A DNA stretch of 64,000 bases from Candidatus Woesebacteria bacterium (GTDB taxonomy: Bacteria > Patescibacteriota > Microgenomatia > UBA1400 > UBA12108): contig JAGOVG010000002.1 in NCBI GenBank assembly GCA_018060845.1, forward strand, positions 23,581 to 87,580, read 5' to 3'. Made by a program: the position numbers and the translations under genes. Of the stretch, positions 1 through 52,952 are shown in pieces. The notes under the pieces are model-generated. The model was not told where the DNA came from and made no database searches. It saw only the letters and a program-made list of their open reading frames with translations. Position 1 is the first letter of the stretch, and each line of letters opens with the position of its first letter.

Positions 1-1
1 A

Positions 2-697
2 GTTTTTGATCTTATCAAAACTGACTATATCCTCTATCTCGATGGCGACGAGTCAGTCACACCATCGCTCATTAATAAGCTAGCCGAGCTGGCAGATGGT
101 GGGGTAGATTACGTAAAGATCCCGAGGCAAAATTACATTTTTAATTCTTGGGTTCAAGCTAGTCGGTGGTGGCCAGACTATCAGGTACGTTTTTTCAAAA
201 AAGGTATGGTAACCTTCCCAACCACGCTCCATAGTGAGCCAGTTGCGACTGGTCACGAGGTAGTGCTCCCAGCGACGCCCGATCTCTCAATCAAACATCT
301 CAACTATCAAAACCTAGACGAGTGGTTACAAAAGAATCAACGCTACGCTCGGGCAGATGCTCAGGATCGCATAAACAGCGGTGAGGAATTTAGTATTTTG
401 ACCGCCTGTCGACTCTCAGTCTCTGAGCTAGTGAGCCGCTTTTTTGCAGGATCTGGTTATGCCGATGGCATGCACGGGCTAGTGCTCAGCATCCTCCAGT
501 CTTTCTATTATTTCTTAGTCTATGCCTACTACTGGGAAGGTAAAAAATATGAGAGCAACCTCTCAATACAGGAGATCAAATCAGTGCCACGAAAATGGTT
601 TGGCCACGGCTTGTCTGAGATTATGTTTTGGGACAATCAGGACAATGGTTTGCTTAATAAGCTCAAGGGGAAACTCAAGCGAAAGTTACTAGCATGA
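2..697 (+). CDS. GT2 glycosyltransferase, WaaE/KdtX-like, C-terminal part (5' end lies outside the window)
   Basis: Frame 2 is open from the window edge to TGA 695-697. Translation VFDLIKTDYILYLDGDESVTP...IPRQNYIFNSWVQASRWWPDYQVRFFKKG parallels the DxDE ... RRNY.LG...HGG.YPD...RLF block of the paralogs at 2986-3774 and 10237-11046. Confidence 0.7.
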   Translation, partial: VFDLIKTDYILYLDGDESVTPSLINKLAELADGGVDYVKIPRQNYIFNSWVQASRWWPDYQVRFFKKGMVTFPTTLHSEPVATGHEVVLPATPDLSIKHLNYQNLDEWLQKNQRYARADAQDRINSGEEFSILTACRLSVSELVSRFFAGSGYADGMHGLVLSILQSFYYFLVYAYYWEGKKYESNLSIQEIKSVPRKWFGHGLSEIMFWDNQDNGLLNKLKGKLKRKLLA

Positions 698-1584
698 AAA
701 AGACAAAAAAAATCAAACACGCGGCAATATTGATCAACTATTCTGATGCAAAAACTACCGCTGACTGCGTTAACAGTATCAAGGCTTCCAAGGATGCTCC
801 GCACATAATCGTCGTCGATAATGGCAGTAGCGATGAGTGTATTGCAGAACTAAAGTCTCTCTGCCCTAATCTAGACCTAATCCAAGCCGGTAGCAATCTC
901 GGATACTCCGCTGGCAATAATATCGGAATCAAAAAAGCACTGAGGCTGGGCGCGCAGGTCGTCTATATTATCAACAACGATACACTAGTAGACCAGAACC
1001 TTTTCTTTAGAGCTTACCGCTATGTTGCCAACAAGACTCGTATTGCAGGCGCTAAGATTTACTACGCAAAAGGTCATGAATATCACGAGGAGTCTAAGGG
1101 GAAGGGGGATATCCTCTGGTATGCTGGCGGATATTTTGATTATGCAACAGCGACTGCTCGCCACTACGGGATCGATGAGCGCGATCAGTCTCAGTATGAC
1201 AAAATCAGACCTGTTGAGTTTGTAACTGGTTGTTTTATGGCAATTCCCCGAGTAGTGCTAAACAAAATCGGCAACTTTAGCGAGGAATATTTCCTCTATC
1301 TAGAAGATACGGACTATTGCTTGCGCGCACAACAGCGTGGGGTCGAGGTAATGTATAACCCTAATCTCGTGCTATATCATCTCAATGGCGGTAGTACCAA
1401 AGCCGGAAGCAAGTTAGTTGACTATTACATGACCAGAAATCGCTTTTTGATCGCTAAGAGGTACGGGAGCTGGAGACTCAGGTTTGCACTACTTAGGGAG
1501 GGGCTGCGTAACTGGTCCGACCCCACTCGAAGGCGCGCACTAATTGATTACCTGAGTAGTAAGTTGGGTAATCGCAGCCTATGA
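694..1584 (+). CDS. GT2 family glycosyltransferase (rhamnosyl/galactofuranosyl-transferase-like)
   Basis: ATG 694 overlaps the upstream TGA (ATGA). Motifs VVDNGSSDEC, YSAGNNIGIK and ED.DYCLRA are typical of GT2 (GT-A fold, DxD). Confidence 0.75.
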   Translation: MKKTKKIKHAAILINYSDAKTTADCVNSIKASKDAPHIIVVDNGSSDECIAELKSLCPNLDLIQAGSNLGYSAGNNIGIKKALRLGAQVVYIINNDTLVDQNLFFRAYRYVANKTRIAGAKIYYAKGHEYHEESKGKGDILWYAGGYFDYATATARHYGIDERDQSQYDKIRPVEFVTGCFMAIPRVVLNKIGNFSEEYFLYLEDTDYCLRAQQRGVEVMYNPNLVLYHLNGGSTKAGSKLVDYYMTRNRFLIAKRYGSWRLRFALLREGLRNWSDPTRRRALIDYLSSKLGNRSL

Positions 1585-3008
1585 TCAAACTAGATTCAAA
1601 TATTCTAAAAAAGATTACTCTGTTCTTCTTGGCAGTTACTACTATTCTGCTATACCACAACCTCGGGCGGGACTACCTCTATGACTGGGATGAGAGTATC
1701 TATGCTCAACTAGGTGTCGAACAGTCAATAAATACTTTGCTCACTCCTACCTGGAATGGTGAATTATGGTTAGAAAAACCACCACTTATCGCTCACCTGA
1801 CAGCGCTTGGGAATGTGGTTAGTAGTGATGGAGAGCTAGGTGCACGGCTATTTATCCCGATAGCCACACTAGTTACCTTGGTCTCAGTCTATGTGATTGG
1901 TGTTCACATCGGGGGAGCTGTTACTGGCTCGATTGGTACTATGATGCTCATGTATTTTGATCTCTTTATTGGTCGAAGTCGAAGTGTTAATACCGATATC
2001 TTCTTGCTCGCAGGGATAACCCTCGCAGTCGCCCTAATCCTCAAAAATGCCAAAACTTACTTAGTTGCACTCGCTCTCGCACTCGCCATCTTAGCCAAAG
2101 GTCCCGCCGGCATCCTCGCCATTTTTATCATGCTGCCGCTCTTGCTAAGCAAACCAAAAAAATACATTCTACTTTCTACTATCTACTTACTACTCTTCAC
2201 TCTCCCATGGCATCTCTACCAGCTATTCATAAATGGGGCAGATTTTTACACACCATATCTACTAGAGCAAGTGATCAGGCGCGCTACAGTCCCGATCGAG
2301 TTTCATATGGAGTCTCGCTGGTTTTATTTTGTGCACTTATATCGAGATCTGGGTGTTGGAGTGTTGCTTGCGTCAGTACTCGGACTGTTAGCATCACTCA
2401 AAAAAAAGAACTACTTACTAGTATGGTGGGTGGTTTTGCCACTCGCAATTTTTACTATTGCTAAGACTCGGCTATCTTGGTATATCCTGCCAGTATATCC
2501 CGCGATCGCTCTCTCAATCGGTTATATTTTTGAATATTTAACTAGTGGCGTAGCCAAAAAATATCGATGGGCTCTAGTCGGACTTGTATCACTAATTGCC
2601 TTGCAATCACTTTTGCATCTTGGTAAGACTACAGAGGTGAGTAGAGTAAATACCACCTATCCCGACCACATTAAGATCGCACTCACTCTATCCGACTATC
2701 TAGAGCCATCCATCGCGTTCTTGGTGAGCCAGAGCGAGCGAACCGCTGAGGCTATTCTGCCGGATAGTCAGCGGCTCAGCAGCAGCTTCCGCTACGGTGG
2801 TGCACCATCGGTAGTTTTTTATAGTGGTAAAAAAGTTGCGTATTATTACAACTATGATCTTTTTATCAAAGACTTAAACGAAGGTGTTCATGAGCTAGCG
2901 GTAGTCACGATAGGGGATATCGACAAAGTCCCAGACAATTACCGAGAAGTTGGGCGTGAGGGTGCATACTATGCCTACCAGAAAGATGTCTCATATGCTA
3001 AGCGTTAG
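1581..3008 (+). CDS. Polytopic membrane glycosyltransferase, GT-C fold (PMT/ArnT-like, GT39/GT83-type)
   Basis: 475 aa with about 11 predicted TM helices. The first extracytoplasmic loop carries YDWDESIYAQ (D-E motif of PMT/ArnT-type GT-C). ATGA overlap with the upstream gene. Confidence 0.65.
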   Translation: MIKLDSNILKKITLFFLAVTTILLYHNLGRDYLYDWDESIYAQLGVEQSINTLLTPTWNGELWLEKPPLIAHLTALGNVVSSDGELGARLFIPIATLVTLVSVYVIGVHIGGAVTGSIGTMMLMYFDLFIGRSRSVNTDIFLLAGITLAVALILKNAKTYLVALALALAILAKGPAGILAIFIMLPLLLSKPKKYILLSTIYLLLFTLPWHLYQLFINGADFYTPYLLEQVIRRATVPIEFHMESRWFYFVHLYRDLGVGVLLASVLGLLASLKKKNYLLVWWVVLPLAIFTIAKTRLSWYILPVYPAIALSIGYIFEYLTSGVAKKYRWALVGLVSLIALQSLLHLGKTTEVSRVNTTYPDHIKIALTLSDYLEPSIAFLVSQSERTAEAILPDSQRLSSSFRYGGAPSVVFYSGKKVAYYYNYDLFIKDLNEGVHELAVVTIGDIDKVPDNYREVGREGAYYAYQKDVSYAKR

Positions 3009-3774
3009 TACACAAATAGCAAAAGAAGATGATCTATCGGTTTTTGCACGCATGCTGGATAGTGTCCGCTCGGCCGATGAGGTAATTATCTTTAATATGG
3101 AGCGCAAGGATAGTGAAGCACAAAAACTTTTTGGCAAATATCATGCTCGGGTAATTAACATCAAAACCCCGAAAGTTGTCGAAGAGATCAGGGAGCGTCA
3201 GATCAAAGAGTCTAAATCTGATTGGATACTAGTTATGGACTACGACGAGGTAATAACAGCAGGTCTCGCCAAAGAGATTAAAAAAGTGGTAGGAAGTAGT
3301 AATCAAAAGTATGGTGCCTATTACATAACTCGCCGCAACTATTCGCTCGGCTATCCATTAAAGCACGGTGGTTTTGGTGACGATGTAGTTCCTCGCTTAT
3401 TCAATAGATCTGAGTTTATAAGCTGGCCTACAGAGATCCACGGTATGCCAAAAATAAAAGGTGAATTTGGTTATCTAACTAACCCAATGGAACATCACAA
3501 AGATGCGAGCCTCGCACAAATGGTCGCAAAGACCAATAGGTATACGGATGTTGAGGCACACCAGTTTTTTGAGGGCGGAGTAGCTGATGTTACCCAGATC
3601 ACTCTGCTTCGCAAAACTATCATGGAGTTTATCAGGCGTTTTGTCATTAAGGCAGGTTTTCTCGATGGCAAGATTGGCACCATCCAAGCTCTCTATCAGA
3701 GCTACGCCATCTATCTGCGCTACGCCAAACTTTACGAAATCCAAAACAATATGAAAATTGAGCACAACCGATAA
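2986..3774 (+). CDS. GT2 glycosyltransferase, WaaE/KdtX-like
   Basis: DYDEVI, YYITRRNYSLGYPLKHGGFGDDVVPRLFNR. The start is ambiguous: in-frame ATGs at 2971, 2986 and 2995, and the track ORF begins at TTG 2950. It overlaps the end of the upstream gene. Confidence 0.7.
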   Translation: MSHMLSVSTQIAKEDDLSVFARMLDSVRSADEVIIFNMERKDSEAQKLFGKYHARVINIKTPKVVEEIRERQIKESKSDWILVMDYDEVITAGLAKEIKKVVGSSNQKYGAYYITRRNYSLGYPLKHGGFGDDVVPRLFNRSEFISWPTEIHGMPKIKGEFGYLTNPMEHHKDASLAQMVAKTNRYTDVEAHQFFEGGVADVTQITLLRKTIMEFIRRFVIKAGFLDGKIGTIQALYQSYAIYLRYAKLYEIQNNMKIEHNR

Positions 3775-3775: not shown

Positions 3776-4837
3776 ATGAATAATTCGAAATCCCGCAATG
3801 GCGGGAAGGCTCTTATCGTCTCTCCCTACTTAGACCACTTAGGCGGAGGGGAGCGCTATATGCTCACCTGCGCAAGCTCCCTTGAGTCACTCGGTTACGA
3901 AGTGAGTATTGGCTGGGATAACCTGGAGTCTATCAGTAACATCTGTCGCATGCTCGCCATTGATCTAAAAAATCCTGTCTTAGTCCCACATATTCGAGAG
4001 CTATACCACAGCCGCAATCCCCTCGCTATGTTTATGGCTACCCGCCCTTACGACGTTGTGGTCTACCTCTCTGACGGCTCTATCCCCCTGCTAGGTGGCC
4101 GGGTCAATCTGCTTCATATGCAGGTGCCATTTCACAATGTGAATGGATCTAACTGGAAGAACAAACTCAAACTAAAAACTATACATCGAGTTATAGTCAA
4201 TTCGAACTTTACGAAGAAAATAGTCGACTCAGAATATGGCATTGATTCATTTGTCCTCTACCCACCAGTCAGTAGCAATAATAAAGTAGGTGCCAAAGAA
4301 AAAATAATTCTCTCTGTCGGTCGCTTTGAACCTTCGCTCAACGTCAAAAAACAGGATGTCCTGATCAATGCCTTCAAAAAAATCTCATCAACTCTATCAG
4401 ATTGGAAGCTCATACTAGTCGGCGGGAGCACCGAAGATAGCTGGATCAAAGAGTTAAATGAACAGGCTGCCGGCTACAACATCGATATACTGCCAAACGT
4501 AGATAGTACTACTCTAGTAGATCTGTACGGTAAAGCTAGTATCTATTGGCACGCTGCCGGATACGGCGTAGACGAAGCTAGGAGTCCCGAGCTAGTAGAG
4601 CATTTTGGCATTAGTACAGTCGAGGCCATCGCCGCGCGTGTCCTCCCACTAGTCTACCGAGCCGGCGGGCAGACCGAGATAGTCAAGCACGATGATCTGC
4701 TCTGGGAGACTATTGATGAGTTAGTTAACAAAACAATTAACCTTACAAATAAAAACTTTAGTCACTACGAGAGCGTGCTCAAAATTGATAGCTTCTCCGA
4801 AGAGGCATTTAAGAACACTCTAAAAACCTTGTTATGA
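3776..4837 (+). CDS. GT4 family glycosyltransferase (GT-B fold)
   Basis: C-terminal E..G(I)STVEAIAARVLPLVYRAGGQTEIV block is typical of GT4. The first ATG is 3776, immediately after the upstream TAA; the track start at 3758 is a TTG. Confidence 0.7.
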   Translation: MNNSKSRNGGKALIVSPYLDHLGGGERYMLTCASSLESLGYEVSIGWDNLESISNICRMLAIDLKNPVLVPHIRELYHSRNPLAMFMATRPYDVVVYLSDGSIPLLGGRVNLLHMQVPFHNVNGSNWKNKLKLKTIHRVIVNSNFTKKIVDSEYGIDSFVLYPPVSSNNKVGAKEKIILSVGRFEPSLNVKKQDVLINAFKKISSTLSDWKLILVGGSTEDSWIKELNEQAAGYNIDILPNVDSTTLVDLYGKASIYWHAAGYGVDEARSPELVEHFGISTVEAIAARVLPLVYRAGGQTEIVKHDDLLWETIDELVNKTINLTNKNFSHYESVLKIDSFSEEAFKNTLKTLL

Positions 4838-6180
4838 AAATAATATTAAATTACGCCCTACCAATCGGCATCATCATCCTCGCGGCGTTTCTGCGCTTCA
4901 ATAACCTAAGCTACCGTGCACCCTTTGACTGGGATCAAAATCGCGACTACCAAGAAGTAGCAAAGATTGCTTCAGGCAAGCTAACTCTCATTGGTCCTGT
5001 TGCCCGCGGCGAGGGTGGGTTTTTTCTCGGCCCGCTTTATTACTACCTCCTCACTCCATCATTTGTCATAACGGGAGAGGATCCAATTGCACTCCCAGTT
5101 TCTAGCATCTTGTTAGATATTCTTGCAATTGGGCTCATTCTCTACTTAGGCAAGTATCTAGGTAATGCCAAATTTGGCTACCTTTTTTCACTCTTCTACG
5201 CTCTCTCGCCGAGCATGGTAGATGCATCTCTCGTCTCATGGAATGTTGCACTCTTGCCTCTCTGGGTCATCGCGATGCTACTCTTTTTGATCAAGCCAAA
5301 ATACAAAAGTATTGACCTCTTACTTGGTGGACTATTGCTCGGATCTAGCTGGCATATCCATGCGGCACTGATCCCGCTCGCACCTATCCTCCTCCTAGCT
5401 CGCTCCCGCTCTATCTCACTATTTTCTATTAAGTCCTTATGGTTGGTCACAGGCTACCTTCTCATGCTCTCGCCTCTCATCCTCTTTGATATCAGACACG
5501 TGGGGTTGCAGTCTAACTTAATCTCGAGCATGGTGACTGCTCAAGGTGAATCACGCGCTGCACTCCCTCTACTACTTGATTCTGTTTTGTCTCGCTTTGG
5601 CAAAAATCTCTCTAGTATGTTTGGAGGGCCAGGTGATCTTAATCTTTGGTTAGGTATCGTGGGATTATCTACATCTCTAGTTGCGGCCATCCGTGGTAAT
5701 GTGTTGTTGAGATTGTCAGCTCTCGCTGTTATTGCCAACATTACTCTTGTTATCCTCTTGGGATCGGTTGGCTTCCCAGAGTACTATCTCGCAACTGCGA
5801 CGATCGGCACACTACTAATCATTACTTACATCTTGTCTACTCACTGGCTAGGGATAGTCATAGCACTTTCTCTCTCACTTTTTTTACTCGCCACAAATAG
5901 CGCGACCGTTGGTCCATTCACGCTCGGTCACAAACTAGATCTTGTGTCTGTTGTTACAGAAGATAAGAGTCTTCATAAAGTCCTCTATGACCTTCCATAT
6001 GGGCGAGATAGCGGTCTGCCAGTTCTACTTAAACGTAGCGGTGCCCATACAAGTAGCGAGGGCAGAGTAATCTATATGATTAGCGACAAAACCGACCCCT
6101 CGCTATTTATAGAGGGTGAGATCGCGAGCGAGGTAGGCTGGTACGGCGGATTTCGATTAGTAAAGAGGGAGTTAAGATAG
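4834..6180 (+). CDS. Polytopic membrane protein, GT-C-like glycosyltransferase candidate
   Basis: 448 aa and highly hydrophobic. N-proximal loop FDWDQNRDYQEV resembles the PMT/ArnT loop-1 motif. ATGA overlap. Confidence 0.5.
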   Translation: MKIILNYALPIGIIILAAFLRFNNLSYRAPFDWDQNRDYQEVAKIASGKLTLIGPVARGEGGFFLGPLYYYLLTPSFVITGEDPIALPVSSILLDILAIGLILYLGKYLGNAKFGYLFSLFYALSPSMVDASLVSWNVALLPLWVIAMLLFLIKPKYKSIDLLLGGLLLGSSWHIHAALIPLAPILLLARSRSISLFSIKSLWLVTGYLLMLSPLILFDIRHVGLQSNLISSMVTAQGESRAALPLLLDSVLSRFGKNLSSMFGGPGDLNLWLGIVGLSTSLVAAIRGNVLLRLSALAVIANITLVILLGSVGFPEYYLATATIGTLLIITYILSTHWLGIVIALSLSLFLLATNSATVGPFTLGHKLDLVSVVTEDKSLHKVLYDLPYGRDSGLPVLLKRSGAHTSSEGRVIYMISDKTDPSLFIEGEIASEVGWYGGFRLVKRELR

Positions 6181-6184: not shown

Positions 6185-7096
6185 ATGAAGAAACAATTGA
6201 GTAAGTCCATCACTGTCGCCATTCCCTCTTGGAATAGTGCCAAACAACTAAAGAAAAATTTGCCTTCGGTTATCAACGCAGCCAAAAGGGTAAATGCCGA
6301 GATAATCATTGTCGATGATGCAAGCTCCGATGACTCAGTCGCTATAATCAAAGGAGACTGGGGTTATCCAATCAAGCTTGTACAAAATTCGACCAACCAG
6401 GGATACGGCGAGACCATTAATCGTGCGGTTGCTCTCGCCCAGTCAGAGCTTGTGGTGATCTTAAATACCGACGTCTCGCTAAGCGATGACTGTATCGAAA
6501 AATCACTTCCCTACTTTGTAGATCCATCGGTCTTTGCCTTAGGTTTAAACTCAGGCGAGGGGTATATGCGAGTCAAATGGGATCGCGGACTCTTTCATCA
6601 TTTTAAAGGGGTAACTGGGGTAGAAGATCCTGGCGTTACTCCAAGTAGTCTCTGGGCTTCAGGAGGTCAGAGTGTTGTCAGACGGTCTTATTGGCTAGAG
6701 CTCGGGGGAATGTGTCCACTCTACAAGCCATTTTACTGGGAAGATACAGACCTCGGCTACGCAGCCTGGAAGAGGGGATACACAATCCTCTGGGGTCGGG
6801 ATTGTCACTGTGTTCATGATCACGAATCTAGCGTAATCGCAGGGAGCTTTGGTAAAAAAGATGTGATGGATGTGGCTCAGCGTAATCAGTTCCTCTTTAT
6901 CTGGAAGAATATTAGTGACGTAGGTCTCTTGCTAACTCATCTACTCTATTTACCAATCTATCTGATTCGCTATCCGAGGACCGTCATATCTGCTCTACGC
7001 TATCTACCTACTGCACTTAAATATCGCAAACTTCAGTCACAGTACTGGACACGGCTTGATGAGGATATACTATCAATATGGCGAGACTCACAATGA
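6185..7096 (+). CDS. GT2 family glycosyltransferase
   Basis: VAIPSWNSAKQL, IIVDDASSDDS, YWEDTDLGYAAWKRG. Confidence 0.7.
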   Translation: MKKQLSKSITVAIPSWNSAKQLKKNLPSVINAAKRVNAEIIIVDDASSDDSVAIIKGDWGYPIKLVQNSTNQGYGETINRAVALAQSELVVILNTDVSLSDDCIEKSLPYFVDPSVFALGLNSGEGYMRVKWDRGLFHHFKGVTGVEDPGVTPSSLWASGGQSVVRRSYWLELGGMCPLYKPFYWEDTDLGYAAWKRGYTILWGRDCHCVHDHESSVIAGSFGKKDVMDVAQRNQFLFIWKNISDVGLLLTHLLYLPIYLIRYPRTVISALRYLPTALKYRKLQSQYWTRLDEDILSIWRDSQ

Positions 7097-15475: not shown

Positions 15476-15482
15476 TACTTCT

Positions 15483-22079: not shown

Positions 22080-22080
22080 T

Positions 22081-34617: not shown

Positions 34618-34656
34618 CGAATAGGTTAATTTAACTATGCGTAGTAAAATAGCCGC

Positions 34657-37548: not shown

Positions 37549-38148
37549 ATGGTAGTTAATCTATCTGAACGTGCTAGTGAGACAAAAAGAAAGATCGGTA
37601 GGAGTGTCTCGGTTAACGGGGTGCACGCAGTCGACGTAGACTTGATCAAAGCCGAAAATCTAAATGACCCCTTGCTAGATCTTAACATCAAAGTGAACAA
37701 TCCCATCGGGCGTCTGTGGTTAGCACTCAAGCGGATGTGGAAGAGCCAAAATACCGTGGTCGCTCTGCGCTTTACAATCCCCCTGATCGTTTTGCCCATT
37801 GCTCTCTATGTCGGGTATCGTCTGTGGCAGGGCAGGGGAGTGAGTACTCCGATGAGCAAGCTGGGGATTATCCACGAGGTTATTGTGACAGGCTCACCTA
37901 AAGATGTGTTGGTCTTGCCAACCAGTGATGTGTATATGCTGTCGTATGACCTTAGCTTTAACACGGCTCACAGGGTCACCGAGAAGCCGGTCATCGTGGT
38001 CGGTAGCTACAACCACCTAAATAACGAGCTATCCGTCCAGGACATCATCGCCTACAAACCCCTAGATATCCCGTCTACTCCCGTTAATCCAGCAGCACCA
38101 AAAGAGACTTGGGAGACTATTCTCCAGTTTATTTCGCAGTTTCGCTAG
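37549..38148 (+). CDS. Hypothetical single-pass membrane protein
   Basis: 199 aa. Charged N-terminus, TM TIPLIVLPIALYVGY, extracytoplasmic C-terminal domain. No recognised motif. Confidence 0.45.
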   Translation: MVVNLSERASETKRKIGRSVSVNGVHAVDVDLIKAENLNDPLLDLNIKVNNPIGRLWLALKRMWKSQNTVVALRFTIPLIVLPIALYVGYRLWQGRGVSTPMSKLGIIHEVIVTGSPKDVLVLPTSDVYMLSYDLSFNTAHRVTEKPVIVVGSYNHLNNELSVQDIIAYKPLDIPSTPVNPAAPKETWETILQFISQFR

Positions 38149-45711: not shown

Positions 45712-46214
45712 TTAACTGCACATTTGAAAACGGCAACGTTGCACTCCCAGGTATTAGGCACGTCACTACCTCTAACATTATTTTGAATGATAAGAATCAG
45801 GTAATAATGTGTTTGCGAGGTTCAAAAAATGGCATACCAATACTAGAGAGCGGAAAATGGGGACTACTAGGTGGCTTTGTAGATCGTGACGAAACTGTCT
45901 CTGAATCAGTTAGACGTGAGGTAATGGAAGAATCTGGCTGGACGATTGATGATGTATCCTTATTCTGCATTAACGATAACCCCAACCGTCCCAAAGAAGA
46001 TCGCCAGAATATCGATTTTGTCTATATTGCCCGGGTAGTTAGTCAAAAAGAAGTTATCGACGAAGAAGTCAGAGAACTCCGCTGGTTTGATCTAGACAAG
46101 TTGCCGCCCGATGACCAGATCGCCTTTGACCACTCACTCGCACTAAAGCTATACAAAAAGCATCTAAAAAATCCTCTCGTCCTACCCATCTTTGGGTATG
46201 GTGCGCTAGAATAG
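45708..46214 (+). CDS. NUDIX hydrolase (nucleotide-sugar/GDP-mannose hydrolase-like)
   Basis: GGFVDRDETVSESVRREVMEESG is a Nudix box (G-x5-E-x7-REuxEExGu). ATG 45708 forms ATGA with the upstream stop. The track start at 45666 lies inside the upstream gene. Confidence 0.7.
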   Translation: MINCTFENGNVALPGIRHVTTSNIILNDKNQVIMCLRGSKNGIPILESGKWGLLGGFVDRDETVSESVRREVMEESGWTIDDVSLFCINDNPNRPKEDRQNIDFVYIARVVSQKEVIDEEVRELRWFDLDKLPPDDQIAFDHSLALKLYKKHLKNPLVLPIFGYGALE

Positions 46215-46218: not shown

Positions 46219-46827
46219 ATGAACTTCCCCCTCAAAGACAAACACGGCAAGAGTTATACCTGGAGCGAGGCCTTTTTTGGCAAGGCAATCCCGAGACTCG
46301 AGTCGTATCTCCTCGACTTTACACTCATGTGCTTGGATGTAACTACTCACATCCCCAGCCATACTCTCCGTAACTTTATCTGGCGCAGTGTCGGGATTAA
46401 GATGGGTGCTAACTCCACACTCCATACAGGCGTCAGGGTATACGACCCTCGCAATATCAAGATCGGGGAGGGGACTATCATCGGCCGCGGTGTCTTTATC
46501 GATGGCAGAGATATGGTAACTATCGGCAGTCACACCAGCATCGCGAGCGAGGTCATGATCTATAGCAGTGAACATGATCTAGCTGCTACTGATTTTCGCG
46601 CAGTTAGTGAGCCAGTCAAAATCGGCGACTACGTCTTTATCGGCCCACGAGCGATCATCCTCCCAGGTGTCAGTATCGCTGATCGCGCTGTTGTTGGAGC
46701 TGGAGCAGTCGTCACCAAAGATGTCATGGAGGGCGAGATAGTAGGTGGTGTCCCTGCAAAACTAATTGGAGAGCGCAAACTAAAGAAAGCCAACTATCGC
46801 CTAGGTCGCTTTAAACTATTCCAATGA
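46219..46827 (+). CDS. Sugar O-acetyltransferase, left-handed beta-helix (hexapeptide-repeat) family (WbbJ/WcaF/LacA-like)
   Basis: Repeating [LIV]-G-x-x-x-x hexapeptides (IGEGTIIGRGVFIDG, IGDYVFIGPRAIILPGVSIADRAVVGAGAVV). Confidence 0.75.
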   Translation: MNFPLKDKHGKSYTWSEAFFGKAIPRLESYLLDFTLMCLDVTTHIPSHTLRNFIWRSVGIKMGANSTLHTGVRVYDPRNIKIGEGTIIGRGVFIDGRDMVTIGSHTSIASEVMIYSSEHDLAATDFRAVSEPVKIGDYVFIGPRAIILPGVSIADRAVVGAGAVVTKDVMEGEIVGGVPAKLIGERKLKKANYRLGRFKLFQ

Positions 46828-47756
46828 ACAAATTAGTCTCAATCATTATTGTCTCCTACAACACAGCTAATCTGACTCAAAAATGCGTAAAACATGCACT
46901 TGCGAGCTCGGGAATAGATGCAGGCCAGCTCGAAATAATCGTCGTCGATAATAATAGTAGCGACAATACCATCCAGCTTCTCAAAAAATCTTATCCAGAT
47001 ATAAAAATAATTAGTAGCCCCAAAAATCTCGGCTTTGGTGGCGGCAACAACCTCGGTGCTAAACATGCTACAGGGGAGTATGTTCTCCTCCTCAATACCG
47101 ACGCCTTCCTCAATCCGGGTTCACTCTCCGAACTCGTAACCGTGTTGGACAAAAACAAATCTATCCTAGCTGTCGCCCCCAAATTGACGTACGAAGATGG
47201 TCAAATACAGCAGTCAGTCGGTTACTTTCCAACACTTGCTAGGGTTGTGGGCTGGATGTGGGGACTAGACAAGTTACCAGGGATCAAGCTCCTATTCCCG
47301 ACTCCATACCACTTTTATGACGTATCCAAATATAACAAAGATCTCTCCCCAGATTGGCTAATGGGTGCCTGTGTCCTTGTGCGTAAAGACGCATATCTCA
47401 GTGTGGCTGGGTTCGATGAGAAAATCTTTATGTACGGCGAAGAAGTCGAGCTATTTTACCGCTTAAAAAAGAAGCATCCTGATCAATTTGTGCGTCTTGT
47501 CACGTCTGTATCTGTTACCCACCTAGGCTCATATAGCTCAAATGCCGCAAATACTTCTAGACTATTGTCAGAGCTCGACGGTATTATCACTTTTTATAAT
47601 CTGCATTTCCCGAGCCTTACATGGGTGATTAAATGGGTCATTAATCTCGGGGTAATCATGCGGATTATTATCTTTAGTCTAATCCCAGCAAAGCGGAGTA
47701 GTGCAGGGCAATACCTTAGCTATCTTGGACAAGCCAAGCAGAGCCGGGTACAATAA
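46824..47756 (+). CDS. GT2 family glycosyltransferase
   Basis: VSIIIVSYNTANL, IIVVDNNSSDNT, FGGGNNLGAK, LLNTDAF. Confidence 0.75.
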   Translation: MNKLVSIIIVSYNTANLTQKCVKHALASSGIDAGQLEIIVVDNNSSDNTIQLLKKSYPDIKIISSPKNLGFGGGNNLGAKHATGEYVLLLNTDAFLNPGSLSELVTVLDKNKSILAVAPKLTYEDGQIQQSVGYFPTLARVVGWMWGLDKLPGIKLLFPTPYHFYDVSKYNKDLSPDWLMGACVLVRKDAYLSVAGFDEKIFMYGEEVELFYRLKKKHPDQFVRLVTSVSVTHLGSYSSNAANTSRLLSELDGIITFYNLHFPSLTWVIKWVINLGVIMRIIIFSLIPAKRSSAGQYLSYLGQAKQSRVQ

Positions 47757-47761: not shown

Positions 47762-49426
47762 ATGCGGCGCATCTTAGCCTGGTTAGACAACAATCTCCTT
47801 ACACTCCTGACTGGTTTTTTGATTGTTTTTATTCCACTATATCCAAAGATCCCGATGGCCGAGCTCATCCAGGGTTATATCGTGCGCATGCGACTCGAAG
47901 ATTTAGTAGTTATGGCAACGAGTATACTCTGGCTTGTCCAGCTCCTGAGGCGCCGGGTAAGTTTGCCTAAAAATTACCTCACCGTCACGATCCTCGCGTA
48001 TCTTGGTTTTGCGCTCTTATCTGTCCTCTCGTCCCTCTTTATTACCGAATCAACTCCTCTAGAGAAAGCGCATGTTCTCAAGCTAATCCTCCATTACTTT
48101 AGGCGTATCGAGTATTTTGCTCTATTCTTTATTACCTATAGCGCGATCAGGACCAAAAAAGATCTAAATCTATTCTTAAAAGTCGCTCTTATCACAACTG
48201 TTGGTATCGTGCTCTACGGGATCGGTCAAAAATACTTTTACTTTCCCGCATTCTCTACCATGAACAGGGAGTTTAGCAAAGGTGTGAGACTTTATCTCCA
48301 GCCCAATACTCGGCTCTTTAGTACCTTTGGTGGTCACTATGACCTAGCTGGGTACTTAACCATCGCCTTGAGTTTCGTCCTCCCCGCCGCTTATTTGGCC
48401 AAGCAAAAACTCGCGAAGTTTGGCTTCTATACTCTCTCTGTGATCGCCTACTGGTGTTTGGTCTTAACTACCTCACGTACCTCATTCATTGGCTATCTTG
48501 TAGGCACCACTATTATTTGTTATCTATTAGTCAAATATCGTGGCTGGTGGTGGAGCATACGGCACTACATCCTCACTATGTTTATGAGTCTGCTAATCAT
48601 GTTTAGCTTTAGTACGCTCCTTGAGCGCTTTACCCAGGTTATTCCTGACCAAAAAACCCGTGATACTATCCTCACTCTCCAAAAAATAATCAATCAGCCA
48701 TTTGTCAGTGAGCCTCAAGGTAAAGATACAGTTGCAGAATTGCCTAGTCTCTTCGCGTTTATTTTTAACAACAAACAACTCAAAACCATTGATCTAACCG
48801 ATGCCGAAAAAACTCAGCTCGATATAGTCGCCTCTAGTTCCGATATGCCACCAAGTCCAGTCAAGCCTACACCGACCCCTCGCTCTGATCTCCCGACCGA
48901 TGTAAGCGATGAGTCTGAGGCTATTAGAGTCCAAACCGCAGAAGATGAGGGGCGGGAGTATACAGGACCACAATATAGCGCCAACGCCCTCAAATACGGA
49001 CTATCCATGGGTATTAGACTAGACGTTCTCTGGCCTAACGCCATCCGAGGTTTTATGACCAACCCACTCCTCGGTACCGGGTATGCGACACTGGTTAAGA
49101 GCAATGTAGGTGAGTTTACTTATGCCGAGAGTACAGACAATGACTATCTACGAATGCTGGGGGAGACTGGGATACTAGGTACTATCGCCTTCCTCTCAAC
49201 TATCTATCTAGTAATCAAATATAGCTACCAAATACTCAAAACAAATAATGACAAGGTAGACCTCCTGGCGCTCGGCGCAATCGGGGCCACTGTCGCACTC
49301 CTAGTGACCGCTACCTACATCGACATTTTTGAGAGCAGCAAAGTAGCCTATACGTACTGGATGCTAGCCGGCATGGTAGCTTACCGCTACGACAACTTAG
49401 CGAGTGTTAAGGATAAAAAGAAATGA
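47762..49426 (+). CDS. O-antigen ligase/polymerase-like (Wzy_C domain) membrane protein with Pro-rich periplasmic insert
   Basis: 554 aa, multi-TM. LTTSRTSFIGYLVG resembles the Wzy_C core. Insert DMPPSPVKPTPTPRSDLPTD. Confidence 0.5.
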   Translation: MRRILAWLDNNLLTLLTGFLIVFIPLYPKIPMAELIQGYIVRMRLEDLVVMATSILWLVQLLRRRVSLPKNYLTVTILAYLGFALLSVLSSLFITESTPLEKAHVLKLILHYFRRIEYFALFFITYSAIRTKKDLNLFLKVALITTVGIVLYGIGQKYFYFPAFSTMNREFSKGVRLYLQPNTRLFSTFGGHYDLAGYLTIALSFVLPAAYLAKQKLAKFGFYTLSVIAYWCLVLTTSRTSFIGYLVGTTIICYLLVKYRGWWWSIRHYILTMFMSLLIMFSFSTLLERFTQVIPDQKTRDTILTLQKIINQPFVSEPQGKDTVAELPSLFAFIFNNKQLKTIDLTDAEKTQLDIVASSSDMPPSPVKPTPTPRSDLPTDVSDESEAIRVQTAEDEGREYTGPQYSANALKYGLSMGIRLDVLWPNAIRGFMTNPLLGTGYATLVKSNVGEFTYAESTDNDYLRMLGETGILGTIAFLSTIYLVIKYSYQILKTNNDKVDLLALGAIGATVALLVTATYIDIFESSKVAYTYWMLAGMVAYRYDNLASVKDKKK

Positions 49427-50841
49427 AAAAATTTAACTTAATTATAATCTTCGTCATCATGGCACTCGGGGCTGCACTCCGACTATACCGACTAGACGCC
49501 CCTCTAGCCGACTGGCATAGTTGGCGACAGACTGATACAGCTAGCGTCGCCCGGGAATATGTAAAAAATGGTATAGACCTAATGCACCCCACTTACCATG
49601 ATCTTAGTAGCATCCCATCGGGGTTAGATAATCCAAATGGCTACCGCTTTGTTGAGTTCCCGATCATAAGTGCTCTCCATGCTACACTCGCCAAAAACTA
49701 TCCTGCACTCAGTCTTGTAGAGTGGGGTAGATTTCTCTCAGTGATAGCTTCTTCGATCTCAATAGGCTTGATCTATCTAATCATGAAGACCGTTAGTGGC
49801 AACTTAGCTGCCATGGTTGCAGCCCTGGTCTATGCCACACTCCCTTACAATATTTTTTATGGTCGTGTCATCCTACCCGAGCCACATCTTGTCTTATTTA
49901 TGCTTACTGCCCTGTATGCCTTTATTCGCTATTACGAAACGGGCAAAATAATCTCTCTCATTTTCTACACTATCACCATGACCCTAGCGGTACTTATGAA
50001 ACCGACAGCACTAGTAGTAGCGATCCCAATCGCGCTTTATGGACTATTTGGAACTAAAGTTAATTTGAAGAGGTTGGGAGTAGTTGCCTTAGTGAGTGCT
50101 CTTTCAGTCTTGCCTTATGCATGGTGGCGCAGCTACGTGGCTAGCTATCCCGCTGGTATCCCCGCTAACGCTTGGCTATTTAATGGTAATGGGATTAGGT
50201 TCAAAGGAGCCTGGCTCCGCTGGCTCTTTGGCGATCGCATCGGTCGCCTAATCATGGGCTACTGGGGTATGATCCCGCTTGGTTTTGGGCTGTTGGCCAT
50301 AGGTCAAAAAAAGTCTGAGACCACGATTGTTGGCGGCCTCGCACTCGCTAGTCTCATATATATGACTGTTATCGCAACTGGCAATGTTCAGCACGATTAC
50401 TATCAGATCCAGATCATCCCGAGCTTGGCCATGCTGATCGGGGTCGGTGTTAGCTACGTCTATACTCTTCGCAAAACATTATTATCAAAGATAACTTTAA
50501 CCTTTTTACTTGTCCCTTGTTACTTAATTGCTCTCGCTCTCGGTTGGTACGAAGTCAGGGGTTACTTTAATATCAATAACCCAGCCATCGTGGCTGCAGG
50601 AGAGCGGATCGATGCAATCACAAATGCCGATGCCAAAGTCATCGCTCCTTACATGGGCGATACAGCATTTCTTTTTCAGACAAACCGGACTGGCTGGCCG
50701 ATCGGTGGGGATATAGATCTAAAGATAAAATCAGGTGCTAGTTATTATGTAACCACGACTCGGGACGCCGAATACCAGGAGCTAAAAAAGAAATACACTT
50801 TAGTCGAAGAAACCGATCAGTACAGCATAATTAAGCTATGA
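49423..50841 (+). CDS. Polytopic membrane glycosyltransferase, GT-C fold (ArnT-like, GT83/GT39-type)
   Basis: 472 aa. DWHSWRQTDTASVAREY loop. About 11 TM helices. ATGA overlap. Confidence 0.6.
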   Translation: MKKFNLIIIFVIMALGAALRLYRLDAPLADWHSWRQTDTASVAREYVKNGIDLMHPTYHDLSSIPSGLDNPNGYRFVEFPIISALHATLAKNYPALSLVEWGRFLSVIASSISIGLIYLIMKTVSGNLAAMVAALVYATLPYNIFYGRVILPEPHLVLFMLTALYAFIRYYETGKIISLIFYTITMTLAVLMKPTALVVAIPIALYGLFGTKVNLKRLGVVALVSALSVLPYAWWRSYVASYPAGIPANAWLFNGNGIRFKGAWLRWLFGDRIGRLIMGYWGMIPLGFGLLAIGQKKSETTIVGGLALASLIYMTVIATGNVQHDYYQIQIIPSLAMLIGVGVSYVYTLRKTLLSKITLTFLLVPCYLIALALGWYEVRGYFNINNPAIVAAGERIDAITNADAKVIAPYMGDTAFLFQTNRTGWPIGGDIDLKIKSGASYYVTTTRDAEYQELKKKYTLVEETDQYSIIKL

Positions 50842-52043
50842 AAATCCTGATGCTCACCCCTTATCTCCCGTACCCACTGGTCTCCGGGGGACAGATCAGG
50901 ACTTACAATCTTCTTAAGGCTCTCAGTACCAAACACGAGATCACACTATTCGCTCTGATCAAAGAAGATTCAGAACGGGAGCACCTTGCTGAGCTCAAAA
51001 AATACTGTAGCAAAATAATCTTATTCAAAAGAACGCGTCATCCATTTGTGTTGCGCAATATCCTCCTCGCTGGCTTTACCGCTTACCCCTTTGTTGTGAC
51101 TCGCAATCTCCCGCTAGGAATGGCTACAGCTATTGAGAAAGAACTCTCAACCACAGCTTATGACCTGATCCACGCTGAGACTTTTTACATGATGCCTAAC
51201 ATCCCAGATACCAAGATCCCGATCATCTTAGCTGAGCAAACAATTGAGTACCTGGGTTACCAAGATTACATGAAAAAAGCTAATCCGCTCCTGCGTCCCA
51301 TCCTCGCGATCGATGTCGCCAAGATCAAATATTGGGAGCGACACTACTGGAAAAAGGCTGACAAGCTAATCACGATGTCTGAAGAGGATAAACAGTTTAT
51401 CGAAAAAGAGCTGGGAACAACGACTAATACTAGTGTCGTTGCTAACGGGGTAGACCTAGCCTATTTTTCAGCTCTCAAAAAAAAGCTCCCCAAAGACCCC
51501 ACTGTCCTCTTTGTCGGAACATTTAAGTGGCTACCCAACAAAGAAGCTGTCGAAGAAATAGTGACAAAGATCTGGCCGCTAATCAAAGCCAAGTTGCCGA
51601 CTGCCAAGCTTAAGATAGTTGGTTTTTCACCTACTCCACGCATCCAGTCTTTTGCCTCAGATCCATCAATCGAAGTACTCGGGGCTATCAAAGATATCCG
51701 TGATGCTTTTGCGACCAGCCACATGCTCCTGGCACCGATTAGGAGTGGTAAGGGGACTAGGTATAAAGTGCTCGAAGCCATGATTACAGGCACTCCAGTG
51801 GTCGCGACTAGCTTAGCTGCGGAGGGGATTGAGCTCACAGACGGCCAAAATGTCTTGATCGCCGATACAGTTGCCGATTTGGCTGAGAGTACCGTCCGCT
51901 TGCTCAAAGACAATGCGCTCCAAACTAAGCTCGGTGCAGCTGGTCAAAGCGTGGTTAAGCGCTCCTACAGCTGGGATGGTATAGCTCGCCAGCTAGATGC
52001 AGTCTACCAAGAATTCAAAAATTCAAAGTATAAAAAGAGTTAA
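50838..52043 (+). CDS. GT4 family glycosyltransferase
   Basis: MKILMLTPYLPYPLVSGGQIRTYNL N-terminus. GTRYKVLEAMITGTPVVATS. Confidence 0.75.
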   Translation: MKILMLTPYLPYPLVSGGQIRTYNLLKALSTKHEITLFALIKEDSEREHLAELKKYCSKIILFKRTRHPFVLRNILLAGFTAYPFVVTRNLPLGMATAIEKELSTTAYDLIHAETFYMMPNIPDTKIPIILAEQTIEYLGYQDYMKKANPLLRPILAIDVAKIKYWERHYWKKADKLITMSEEDKQFIEKELGTTTNTSVVANGVDLAYFSALKKKLPKDPTVLFVGTFKWLPNKEAVEEIVTKIWPLIKAKLPTAKLKIVGFSPTPRIQSFASDPSIEVLGAIKDIRDAFATSHMLLAPIRSGKGTRYKVLEAMITGTPVVATSLAAEGIELTDGQNVLIADTVADLAESTVRLLKDNALQTKLGAAGQSVVKRSYSWDGIARQLDAVYQEFKNSKYKKS

Positions 52044-52049
52044 GATGAT

Positions 52050-52952
52050 ATGAAAAATAAACTTGATTTATCAATCATTATTGTCTCACACAACAGTCAC
52101 AGTTTTTTGCGCCAAACACTCAACTCACTAGCTACTCAACAAAATATTTCATACGAGATCATCGTCGTAGATAACTTAAGCACTGACAAGACTCGTGAGA
52201 TGCTAAAGAGTGAATTCCCCGGGGTTACTTTGATCAAAAGAGATACTTCTGTAGGCTTTGCCGCTGCCAACAATGTAGGGATCAAGCAAGCTACTGCGGG
52301 GACTCTGCTCTTCCTCAATCCCGATATTAGTTTTAATACTCCGACTGACCTCGCTCGCTGCTATGAACACTTGAACATTGATAACAAGATCTCCTGTCTC
52401 GGTCCCAAGGTGACTCTCGCCCTAACAGGTGAGATCGACGCTACCTCGCACCGCGGCTTCCCGACCCCTTTTGCGAGCTTTACTCACTTTAGCGGACTCT
52501 CTAGATTGTTCCCGAATGTTGCCATGCTTAATCAATACACCAAGAGTTATCTTGGCTACGATCACGAACACGAGATCGATGCGATCGGTGGTATGTTTAT
52601 GATGCTCAAGCGAGAGGCGGGGGAGAGCATCGGATGGTGGGACGAAGAATATGATTTTTATGGTGAGGATCTAGACTTATGTTATCGATTGTGGCAACAC
52701 AATCTGCGGATTCTTTACTACCCAACAGTAACTATCAAGCACTATAAGGGTGCGACCACCGGCATGAGCCGAGCTAGTCGCTCAGTCACTACTGCGTCAG
52801 TCGAAAAAACGCGCCAGGTCCGCCGCTGGTCTATACAGGCGATGGAGATTTTTTACCGTAAGCATTATCAAAAAAAGTATCCATTCTTGATCAACTGGAT
52901 TGTCTTCCTCGGTATTCGCCTTATGAAGTTCCGTCGTGTCACCCTAGCATAA
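52050..52952 (+). CDS. GT2 family glycosyltransferase
   Basis: LSIIIVSHNSHSFL, IIVVDNLSTDKT, FAAANNVGIK, EDLDLCYR. This is the last gene of the long co-directional array. Confidence 0.75.
   Translation: MKNKLDLSIIIVSHNSHSFLRQTLNSLATQQNISYEIIVVDNLSTDKTREMLKSEFPGVTLIKRDTSVGFAAANNVGIKQATAGTLLFLNPDISFNTPTDLARCYEHLNIDNKISCLGPKVTLALTGEIDATSHRGFPTPFASFTHFSGLSRLFPNVAMLNQYTKSYLGYDHEHEIDAIGGMFMMLKREAGESIGWWDEEYDFYGEDLDLCYRLWQHNLRILYYPTVTIKHYKGATTGMSRASRSVTTASVEKTRQVRRWSIQAMEIFYRKHYQKKYPFLINWIVFLGIRLMKFRRVTLA

Follow-up and report, generated by a model that had tools for sequence, protein, structure and literature searches.

Loci that direct Wzx/Wzy-type polysaccharide synthesis, such as the colanic acid (wca) locus of Escherichia coli and the exopolysaccharide (EPS) locus of Bifidobacterium longum 105-A, share many components with the gene array described here, which lies in a 64,000-nucleotide stretch of bacterial DNA (the window, meaning the whole of the stretch that was analysed). 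Common to both are a Bac_transf priming phosphoglycosyltransferase (PGT), glycosyltransferases of families GT2 and GT4, a MOP/Wzx flippase and a Wzy_C-type protein, together with ManC, Fcl-like, GalE and WecB genes, a WcaF-like acetyltransferase and a NUDIX enzyme. In the B. longum locus, as here, a DUF4012 protein adjoins the priming enzyme (PMC5412050). The array in the window is two to four times longer than these loci, however, and has at least nine glycosyltransferases of the GT-C fold, and while Wzx/Wzy loci vary by serotype its frame is conserved across a whole class of the Candidate Phyla Radiation (CPR).

Three other groups of systems bear comparison. In two of the polyprenyl-phosphate-sugar/GT-C decoration systems (GacI-GacJ-GacL, GtrA/B/V, CsbB/YfhO, PpgS-Rv3632-Rv3779), namely GacI/GacJ and PpgS/Rv3632, a small DUF2304 protein stimulates synthesis of a polyprenyl-phosphate sugar, and a GT-C enzyme uses this sugar outside the membrane; one gene pair of the array, g16/g17, is of the type of these two pairs (bioRxiv 10.1101/180810). 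The ArnT/PMT-like GT-C proteins found here would also be extracytoplasmic transferases. The known systems, however, have one GT-C and a single side-chain sugar, whereas here at least nine GT-C paralogs, at most 34% identical, stand in one block; no GtrA-type flippase is present in the window, though a GT2-GtrA fusion was found in the left flank of a relative. In mycobacteria and corynebacteria, the lipomannan/lipoarabinomannan (LM/LAM) and arabinogalactan pathways (MptA/B, Emb, Aft, PimE, Ppm1) also employ many GT-C enzymes, with polyprenyl-phosphate sugars as donors, to elaborate an envelope heteropolysaccharide outside the membrane. An MptA_B-family gene is found in the array of relatives, and the pathway here looks conserved, core rather than accessory. 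The mycobacterial genes are spread over several loci, however. The paralogs here, which belong to a CPR genome of about 1 Mb, resemble ArnT and DUF2142 proteins and not Emb or Aft, and there is no sign of arabinofuranose or galactofuranose chemistry. Finally, SAR11 hypervariable region 2 (HVR2) and Prochlorococcus island 4 also give a large share of a small genome to surface glycan genes in one region. Both are hypervariable between strains, whereas here variation is confined to a middle cassette and one junction, within a frame that stays syntenic from species to species.

We conclude, with a probability of roughly 0.75, that the window covers the greater part of a supercluster for a cell-envelope glycopolymer, passed on by vertical inheritance, in a Microgenomates (CPR/Patescibacteria) bacterium. 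The components are all of known kinds; what is new is the scale, the GT-C richness, the class-wide synteny and the share of a genome of about 1 Mb.

A preliminary description of this DNA had reported a single-strand array of about 48 coupled glycan-assembly genes over positions 1-52952. A scan for open reading frames (ORFs) indeed gives, from 2 to 52952, 48 ORFs of 100 aa or more on the plus strand, the first of which (g01) is truncated by the left window edge, with its 5' end outside the window. Minus-strand ORFs overlapping this interval are all nested in plus-strand genes and drop out when genes are called greedily without overlap, so that no credible minus-strand gene lies among them. While the same-strand run to 52952 stands, the limits given to the array do not: its left edge is cut by the window, and beyond a small insert five further glycan genes (two GT4, a ManC-like enzyme, the priming PGT and DUF4012) follow up to 59372. 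In total the window holds 53 co-oriented array genes (g01-g53) over at least 59 kb (59.4 kb). Families were assigned from a Pfam scan of 58 window proteins, NCBIfam, paralogy and profile comparison, as listed below (TM, transmembrane helix; hhalign values are probabilities against the g03 family; GC3, GC content at third codon positions; SAM, S-adenosylmethionine; AF2, AlphaFold2, with its mean confidence pLDDT; L numbers denote related loci).

g01, 2..697 (+): GT2 (Pfam GT2, E 1.9e-4; paralog of g04 and g10; 87% ortholog in L083)
g02, 694..1584 (+): GT2 (Pfam GT2, 49 bits; sub-threshold rhamnosyltransferase family match)
g03, 1581..3008 (+): GT-C, ArnT-like, NCBI name GT39 (PMT_2; family profile matches ArnT 5EZM)
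g04, 2995..3774 (+): GT2-like (31% identity to g10, E 3e-30; weak Pfam GT2)
g05, 3776..4837 (+): GT4 (Glycos_transf_1, 76 bits)
g06, 4834..6180 (+): GT-C (weak PMT_2; hhalign 80%; 7 TM)
g07, 6185..7096 (+): GT2 (Pfam GT2, 75 bits)
g08, 7093..8730 (+): GT-C, PMT/PMT_2 (PMT_2, 52 bits, and PMT; hhalign 97.8%)
g09, 8732..10222 (+): 9-TM membrane protein (no Pfam match; 74% ortholog in L083)
g10, 10237..11046 (+): GT2 (Pfam GT2, 83 bits)
g11, 11033..12697 (+): 9-TM membrane protein (73% ortholog in L085 has PF10131, PTPS_related)
g12, 12649..13722 (+): GT4 (Glycos_transf_1, 88 bits)
g13, 13703..15475 (+): GT-C paralog (BLASTP to g08, E 4e-18; weak PMT; GC3 0.36)
g14, 15483..17291 (+): GT-C paralog of low GC3 (BLASTP to g08, E 4e-18, also to g15)
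g15, 17294..18919 (+): GT-C, PMT_2/PMT (Pfam; 33% identity to g08 over 511 aa)
g16, 18916..19572 (+): GT2, polyprenyl-phosphate-sugar synthase type, GacI/PpgS/AglJ-like (Pfam GT2, 89 bits)
g17, 19563..19898 (+): DUF2304, small 3-TM protein, GacJ/Rv3632 family (Pfam, 58 bits)
g18, 19900..20676 (+): GT2 (Pfam GT2, 108 bits)
g19, 20700..22079 (+): DUF2079 polytopic membrane protein (Pfam, 148 bits; absent from L081)
g20, 22081..23025 (+): short-chain dehydrogenase/reductase (SDR), GDP-L-fucose synthase-like (Pfam Epimerase; NCBIfam Fcl, 287 bits, cut-off 500)
g21, 23022..23975 (+): 3-TM protein (no Pfam or PHROG match; conserved in L081, L082)
g22, 23972..25267 (+): 10-TM protein (TM profile; no Pfam match)
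g23, 25254..26333 (+): GT4-like (Glyco_trans_1_4, 37 bits)
g24, 26317..27051 (+): SAM methyltransferase (Methyltransf_23/11/25)
g25, 27056..28108 (+): WecB, non-hydrolysing UDP-GlcNAc 2-epimerase (TIGR00236, 384 bits, cut-off 210)
g26, 28105..30342 (+): GT4 with C-terminal alpha/alpha-toroid fusion (Pfam; AF2 pLDDT 87.6)
g27, 30333..31205 (+): FkbM-type methyltransferase (Methyltransf_21, 84 bits)
g28, 31198..31920 (+): SAM methyltransferase (Methyltransf_23)
g29, 31917..33476 (+): GT-C, DUF2142 type (family-based; hhalign 82%)
g30, 33490..34617 (+): 7-TM protein (no Pfam match; hhalign 7%)
g31, 34657..35640 (+): GalE, UDP-glucose 4-epimerase (TIGR01179, 286 bits, cut-off 262)
g32, 35646..36371 (+): endonuclease/exonuclease/phosphatase-fold (EEP) enzyme (Exo_endo_phos, 53 bits)
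g33, 36389..37501 (+): membrane-anchored protein with Pro/Ser/Thr linker and beta-rich domain (from sequence; GC 0.50)
g34, 37549..38148 (+): 1-TM protein (no Pfam (E 0.001) or PHROG match; conserved in L081, L082)
g35, 38169..39446 (+): Wzx/MOP flippase, 9 TM (Polysacc_synt, 83 bits; weak NCBIfam MOP flippase match)
g36, 39433..40239 (+): GT2 (Pfam GT2, 40 bits)
g37, 40236..41300 (+): GT4 (Glycos_transf_1, 90 bits)
g38, 41284..42174 (+): GT2 (Pfam GT2, 97 bits)
g39, 42176..43522 (+): GT-C (PMT_2, 49 bits; hhalign 84%)
g40, 43506..44594 (+): GT4 (Glycos_transf_1, 109 bits)
g41, 44602..45711 (+): GT4 (Glycos_transf_1, 104 bits)
g42, 45708..46214 (+): NUDIX hydrolase (Pfam, 65 bits)
g43, 46219..46827 (+): hexapeptide O-acetyltransferase, WcaF-like (Hexapep; NCBIfam WcaF, 98 bits, below cut-off)
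g44, 46824..47756 (+): GT2 (Pfam GT2, 95 bits)
g45, 47762..49426 (+): Wzy_C (O-antigen ligase/polymerase-like) membrane protein (conserved in L089, L091)
g46, 49423..50841 (+): GT-C (PMT_2, 50 bits, and PMT; hhalign 97%)
g47, 50838..52043 (+): GT4 (Glyco_trans_1_4, 83 bits; syntenic in more than 40 relatives)
g48, 52050..52952 (+): GT2 (Pfam GT2, 77 bits)
g49, 53539..54642 (+): GT4, start ATG 53539 MVRIAIDARFYG, which fits ortholog lengths (Glycos_transf_1, 98 bits)
g50, 54608..55702 (+): GT4 (Glycos_transf_1, 116 bits)
g51, 55704..56786 (+): mannose-1-phosphate guanylyltransferase-like, ManC (NTP_transferase and ManC beta-helix; TIGR01479, 220 bits, below cut-off)
g52, 56779..57414 (+): small priming polyprenyl-phosphate glycosylphosphotransferase, Bac_transf (Pfam, 205 bits; aligns to the catalytic C-terminal region of WbaP/EPS_sugtrans)
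g53, 57408..59372 (+): DUF4012 envelope protein (Pfam, 77 bits; more than 3312 homologs)

Glycan-related families account for 41 of the 48 ORFs up to 52952 and for 46 of all 53 genes (Pfam, NCBIfam or paralogy). Thirty of the 53 encode glycosyltransferases: 11 GT2 with the GT-A fold (g01, g02, g04, g07, g10, g16, g18, g36, g38, g44 and g48), 10 GT4 with the GT-B fold (g05, g12, g23, g26, g37, g40, g41, g47, g49 and g50) and nine GT-C (g03, g06, g08, g13, g14, g15, g29, g39 and g46). The Pfam search of all proteins, which the preliminary description had proposed as a check, therefore bears out its picture of a glycan locus composed of GT2, GT4 and GT-C enzymes, sugar-nucleotide enzymes, methyl- and acetyltransferases and a transporter, the last being the Wzx flippase. 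Its claim of unusual length and paralog richness also holds; in both respects the array is exceptional.

The GT-C assignment rests on Pfam for g03, g06, g08, g15, g39 and g46, on paralogy for g13 and g14 and on its family for g29. It is firmest for g03, the only one tested in this way, where the profile of a 48-sequence family matches the ArnT structure 5EZM (E 1e-52 over 343 positions). In these 48 sequences Asp37, Glu38, Lys66 and a DEGxYA motif are invariant, and the conserved acidic motif in the first outer loop, as seen in GT-C enzymes, is present. Against this family hhalign gave probabilities of 80-98% for g06, g08, g15, g29, g39 and g46. g29 has no Pfam match of its own and its profile matched nothing in the PDB, but of 41 sampled members of its family (1482 representative homologs) 31 match DUF2142 and 13 PMT_2. 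Single-sequence phmmer searches of g08, g46 and g19 against the PDB gave no matches. By analogy with the known systems, the donors of the GT-C enzymes would be polyprenyl-phosphate sugars. As BLASTP among the window proteins finds no paralogs in the array above 34% identity, the paralogs must be old, and a recent tandem duplication is ruled out.

By tblastn of all window proteins against the fetched related loci we found colinear blocks, at about 65-97% amino-acid identity, in at least five independent assemblies. These cover g01-g12 (L083, L084 and L085; five contigs overall), g15-g38 (L082) and g46-g57 (L002, L009 and many more). The colinear order recurs in relatives from independent NCBI, JGI, ENA and Logan assemblies, which answers the call in the preliminary description for comparative genomics. 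At the right end, 44 of the 55 species-level relatives whose flanks are long enough share the order g46/47-g48-g49-g50-ManC-PGT-DUF4012-RecO-GlyRS (GlyRS, glycyl-tRNA synthetase), even where GlyRS identity falls to about 60%; among the 11 loci that lack this order are those titled Saccharibacteria and Patescibacteria group. The locus is thus a conserved lineage trait of Microgenomates and not peculiar to one genome.

Not all of it is equally constant. In g13-g14 and g19-g31 (13703-17291 and 20700-35640) GC3 is 0.34-0.42, compared with 0.44-0.55 elsewhere in the window. L081 lacks g13-g15 and g19 and has other genes instead, while the middle region of L090 contains a DegT aminotransferase, an Acyl_transf_3 protein and a minus-strand gene. 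Relative to the closest genome, GCA_964610445.1, the glycosyltransferases are 74-87% identical and GlyRS 95%. The locus is modular, with conserved left (GT-C/GT2) and right (g46-g53) frames around a low-GC3, strain-variable cassette (g13-g14 and g19-g31), and this low-GC3 stretch is probably an exchanged cassette.

The relatives also show how far the array reaches. They extend about 12 kb to the left of g03 on the same strand (in JACCDN010123187.1 the run begins 12 kb left of g03), with genes for a 571-aa membrane protein, GT2, PMT_2, GT2, an MptA_B-family protein, PMT_2, PTPS_related, a second Wzx/MurJ-like flippase and the GT2 orthologs of g01 and g02. There the run is ended by two conserved minus-strand genes of 558 and 384 aa (L087 4732-7559; L086 766-1920), neither of which has a Pfam match; further left lie Gmd, another SDR and the GT2-GtrA fusion. 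On the 90.3-kb Logan contig SRR22388156_2003 the distance from the g03 ortholog to DUF4012 is 68.4 kb and the array continues for at least 10 kb beyond g03, so that on this relative's contig it measures at least 80 kb. In CAZZNJ010000001.1 the interval from g03 to GlyRS is about 70 kb, compared with 58.6 kb in the window, and in the Fur0011 metagenome-assembled genome (MAG) two anchor genes are 45 genes apart by locus tag.

The junction between g48 and g49 is occupied by an insert; the features there are as follows.

Orphan ORF, 52954..53478 (-): 174 aa, lying at the variable g48|g49 junction; none of the tests marks it as a glycan gene
Promoter-like sites, 53472..53532 (+): two overlapping sigma-70-like matches (10 of 12) just upstream of g49; consensus matches only

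The ORF is separated from the ATG of g49 at 53539 by a 60-nt spacer. It has no Pfam, PHROG or phage match and is absent from most relatives, though L005 has a weak homolog at the same site and on the same strand (27% over 109 aa). In about two thirds of relatives the g48-g49 gap is at most 60 nt, and the 174-aa ORF is therefore an insertion. In 12 of 36 relatives the gap is 300-1850 nt, with unrelated contents. The slot is filled also in L005, L021, L023, L056, L059, L060, L063, L068, L074, L078 and L091, by a 527-aa minus-strand ORF in L063 and by two families of small plus-strand ORFs in others, and in JBPOIG010000011.1 an AAA_15/AAA_21 ATPase and a 185-aa protein found there look defence-like. 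Insertions recur at the g48|g49 junction.

Within 2-52952 the genes are very tightly packed. If each gene is taken to start at the ATG closest to the stop before it, 26 of the 47 junctions overlap, and every junction has an in-frame start between -59 and +47 nt from the upstream stop. Fourteen are 4-nt ATGA overlaps (694, 1581, 4834, 7093, 18916, 23022, 23972, 28105, 31917, 40236, 45708, 46824, 49423 and 50838), which include all 13 noted previously and add 7093; that at 45708 uses a second in-frame ATG and not the start of the longest ORF. The coding fraction is 99.6% and the longest gap 47 nt. Positive gaps total about 220 nt, or about 211 nt with longest-ORF starts, rather than the 160 nt or so given before. 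As background for the spacing we used the 10-kb right flanks of 31 related loci, which are largely the co-oriented division and cell wall (dcw) operon. There the same-strand adjacency is 0.81, the median gap +9 nt and the share of gaps of at most 20 nt 59%; for the array the corresponding values are a median of -4 nt and a share of 92%. The array is thus tighter than an already compact co-oriented genome, and as the flank is mostly the dcw operon the contrast with a genome-wide average is probably stronger. At an adjacency of 0.81 a same-strand run of 48 genes would arise with a chance of about 5e-5 (0.81^47). Organisation in operons and the streamlining of CPR genomes are probably both behind the tight packing. 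GC skew is negative nearly throughout 1-64000 (cumulative -1.94) despite nearly all genes being on the plus strand, the reverse of the usual link between leading and coding strand.

Taken together, the genes suggest a pathway in which Wzx/Wzy-type lipid-linked assembly would be combined with extensive extracytoplasmic elaboration by GT-C enzymes. The nucleotide-sugar and tailoring set comprises WecB and GalE (both above NCBIfam cut-offs), the Fcl-like SDR, the ManC-like enzyme, three methyltransferases, the WcaF-like acetyltransferase and the NUDIX and EEP-fold enzymes. ManC, the Fcl-like enzyme, WecB and GalE would supply GDP-Man or GDP-6-deoxyhexose, UDP-ManNAc and UDP-Gal/Glc. g52 would prime undecaprenyl phosphate at the cytoplasmic face, and soluble GT2 and GT4 enzymes would assemble the lipid-linked oligosaccharide, to which O-methyl and O-acetyl groups would be added. 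It would then be flipped across the membrane by Wzx (g35) and polymerised or ligated by the Wzy_C protein g45, in which g22 might also take part. Alongside this, polyprenyl-phosphate monosaccharides would be produced by g16/g17 and perhaps by further GT2 enzymes. The best NCBIfam matches of g16 are AglJ (108 bits, cut-off 325) and PpgS (105 bits, cut-off 370), it is also near PgfS, and its subfamily would fit DPM1/AglJ/PpgS; g17 overlaps the g16 stop by 10 nt, and the pair is kept in L081, L082 and L090. The GT-C enzymes, at least nine in number, would use such sugars outside the membrane to extend or decorate the polymer, following the logic of Gram-positive rhamnose-polysaccharide side chains, mycobacterial LM/LAM and arabinogalactan, and DUF4012 (g53) would take part in one of the later steps at the envelope. 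The polymer is predicted to be built from Man or a GDP-derived 6-deoxyhexose, ManNAc and Gal/Glc, carrying O-methyl and O-acetyl groups, and the acceptor could be peptidoglycan, lipid or protein.

Several observations weigh against this account. Every step in it is read from homology, and the sugar identities are tentative because most NCBIfam matches fall below the equivalog cut-offs. A Wzy polymerase is not identified with confidence: g45 is assigned only by Wzy_C (51 bits), a domain common to ligases and O-oligosaccharyltransferases as well as polymerases, and g22, which is without a family match, is a candidate Wzy-type polymerase by inference only. No Wzz/polysaccharide co-polymerase (PCP), GNVR, CpsD-type tyrosine kinase or LytR-CpsA-Psr (LCP; LytR_cpsA_psr) match was found by Pfam among the 58 window proteins, nor was an outer-membrane polysaccharide export (OPX; Wza) gene found in the window, in which respect it also differs from the Wzx/Wzy loci; a chain-length regulator could be encoded beyond the window. 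Pfam and profile searches gave no functional assignment for five polytopic proteins (g09, g19, g21, g22 and g30) and g34, and comparison with the ArnT-like g03 family by hhalign gave nothing significant for g09, g11, g19, g22 and g30. Seven genes could be placed in no family at all, namely g09, g21, g22, g30, g33, g34 and the insert ORF. Lastly, the second flippase that relatives carry immediately beyond the left window edge raises the possibility of more than one glycan product.

The last point bears also on whether the whole block might be one polycistronic, translationally coupled operon making a single glycoconjugate. The single strand, the many overlapping and ATGA junctions and the absence of gaps above 47 nt would all fit this. 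Inside the array promoter-like sites, apart from the two at the insert, are not enriched over shuffled sequence and terminator-like sites are not above shuffled expectation, though such consensus scans are weak evidence in a CPR organism. Shine-Dalgarno (SD)-like motifs precede only 13 of 56 starts, compared with 12.5% of control positions, and their scarcity, which would favour re-initiation at overlaps, would, together with the few promoter and terminator sites, agree with long polycistronic messages. From 2 to 52952 the genes stay on one strand, free of long gaps and intrinsic terminators, but at 52954-53539 the opposite-strand ORF and the promoter-like sites interrupt the run. Moreover, as the g48|g49 slot holds different inserts in a third of relatives (12/36), transcription must be able to restart there, and the minus-strand genes within the cassette of L081 and L090, like the second flippase, point to several units or products. 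It would therefore seem unlikely that the block is one such operon, though a single transcript of 53-59 kb is possible.

Somewhat less improbable, though still doubtful, is that the locus serves mainly general protein O-glycosylation, with the GT-C and Wzy_C proteins acting as oligosaccharyltransferases on Ser/Thr/Pro-rich surface proteins, pilins or an S-layer. The nine GT-C proteins are of the PMT_2/GT39-like family, the AglJ and PgfS proteins nearest to g16 serve protein glycosylation and the Wzy_C domain is also found in the PglL/PilO O-oligosaccharyltransferases. Pilin glycosylation in CPR is suspected but unexplored (PMC11623550). The array also encodes a plausible candidate for a glycosylated surface protein, g33, whose sequence comprises a TM anchor, a Pro/Ser/Thr linker of about 60 residues, which hints at protein glycosylation, and a beta-rich domain with WDFDGDG and many N-x-S/T sites. 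However, no ortholog of g33 (at least 40% identity over at least 80% of the length) was found among 87 screened loci, L082 has no gene of its size at the equivalent position, and its GC of 0.50 compares with about 0.40 for its left-hand neighbours; being specific to one genome it cannot be a conserved glycosylation substrate. The g03 profile matches ArnT, a lipid-acceptor enzyme, and not PMT, there is no pilin or S-layer gene in the window, and the priming PGT, Wzx, the many GT2 and GT4 enzymes and DUF4012 make up the architecture of a polysaccharide locus. A horizontally acquired, hypervariable O-antigen or capsule-type island of the SAR11 or Prochlorococcus kind is very unlikely. While the low GC3 of g13-g14 and g19-g31, the rarity of g26, the greater divergence of the glycosyltransferases than of GlyRS from the closest genome and the differing cassettes of L081, L082 and L090 would agree with it, only the middle cassette behaves as replaceable, and the frame order extends over 44 of 55 species and, for g01-g12, across five contigs. 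Pfam, Rfam and tRNA scans showed no integrase, transposase, tRNA or flanking repeat in the window, which also makes a mobile island unlikely. Nothing specific speaks for a chimeric contig, an assembly or binning artefact, beyond the uncultured source and the many related MAG records with wrong taxon names; it is excluded, since the same gene order is recovered by independent NCBI, JGI, ENA and Logan assemblies.

CPR bacteria (Patescibacteria) are described as metabolically minimal. With at least 59-80 kb in genomes that in relatives measure 0.8-1 Mb, a whole CPR class nevertheless keeps a huge glycan-assembly block of roughly 6-10% of the genome. Such an investment implies a product central to the envelope and probably to the epibiotic lifestyle, host recognition or phage resistance. 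In the literature searched we found no description of a CPR or Microgenomates glycosyltransferase or GT-C array. One survey reports glycan biosynthesis beyond peptidoglycan and lipopolysaccharide to be almost missing in Patescibacteria (PMC7137472), and the Saccharibacteria's own glycosylation has been called unexplored (PMC11623550), while an essential EPS locus is reported in Southlakia (PMC10633639). A more far-reaching reading, which we offer tentatively and would not yet favour, is that Microgenomates, credited with next to no biosynthetic capacity, build an essential, lineage-defining secondary cell-wall heteropolysaccharide or lipoglycan. This would take place on a mycobacteria-like extracytoplasmic line with some 10-15 GT-C enzymes, whose genes would share a single co-oriented supercluster that spans about 80 kb, or 8-10% of the genome. 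DUF4012 would then be a hitherto unrecognised late-step component, an LCP-like ligase or a co-polymerase, and the exchangeable middle cassette would determine the surface chemistry of each strain, with a role in attaching to hosts or evading phages. The locus is an unusually dense natural collection of diverged GT-C enzymes and provides concrete targets in the GacI/J-like pair, the ArnT-like GT-C set, DUF4012 and the variable cassette.

Two of the individual proteins have unusual features. g26 is a rare fusion, with only about nine full-length homologs among 5.8 billion proteins. Its GT4 domain is of the retaining type, and in a Foldseek search with the AF2 model the N-terminal half matches MshA, PimB' and BshA, the list of matches being filled by GT4 proteins; the toroid has weak Pfam matches to C5-epimerase, GH127, pectate lyase and LanC-like families. 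The DUF4012 protein g53 adjoins the priming enzyme here and in all syntenic relatives, and its family is CPR-enriched (PMC6744442). The AF2 model (pLDDT 75.9) combines a helical bundle some 200 residues long with a TM anchor, an alpha/beta core and C-terminal beta-sandwiches. The core contains many invariant Arg, Asp and Asn residues, for example in FQNDAELRxTGGF and NLRDMNLSPDF, and weak Foldseek matches include several LytR-Cps2A-Psr structures. Instead of being an 'auxiliary' protein, g53 may have gone unrecognised as an enzyme.

To the right of 59372 follow housekeeping genes on the same strand, namely RecO, class II GlyRS, a gene without known family and MraZ. Rfam and tRNA scans of the whole window were empty. 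The only two long non-coding stretches in the window are found here, 274 nt upstream of GlyRS (59931-60204) and 572 nt upstream of mraZ (62388-62959); neither gave an Rfam or tRNA match, and hence no T-box was detected. Syntenic relatives have nothing equivalent to a 116-aa minus-strand ORF at 62374-62724, which is probably spurious. The GlyRS is 92-96% identical to proteins of Microgenomates/Woesebacteria MAGs, whose near-complete contigs among the relatives measure 0.78-0.96 Mb, in keeping with the small-genome organism that had been proposed. Among the better GlyRS matches, those with a plausible taxon name all come from CPR bacteria of the Microgenomates group. Many public third-party annotation (TPA) MAG records with this Microgenomates synteny are titled uncultured Pseudomonadales or Gammaproteobacteria (e.g. 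L001, L003, L004, L006, L008 and L011) and a few Eisenbacteria, Limnocylindrales or Sulfotelmatobacter, titles that look like taxonomic mislabels.

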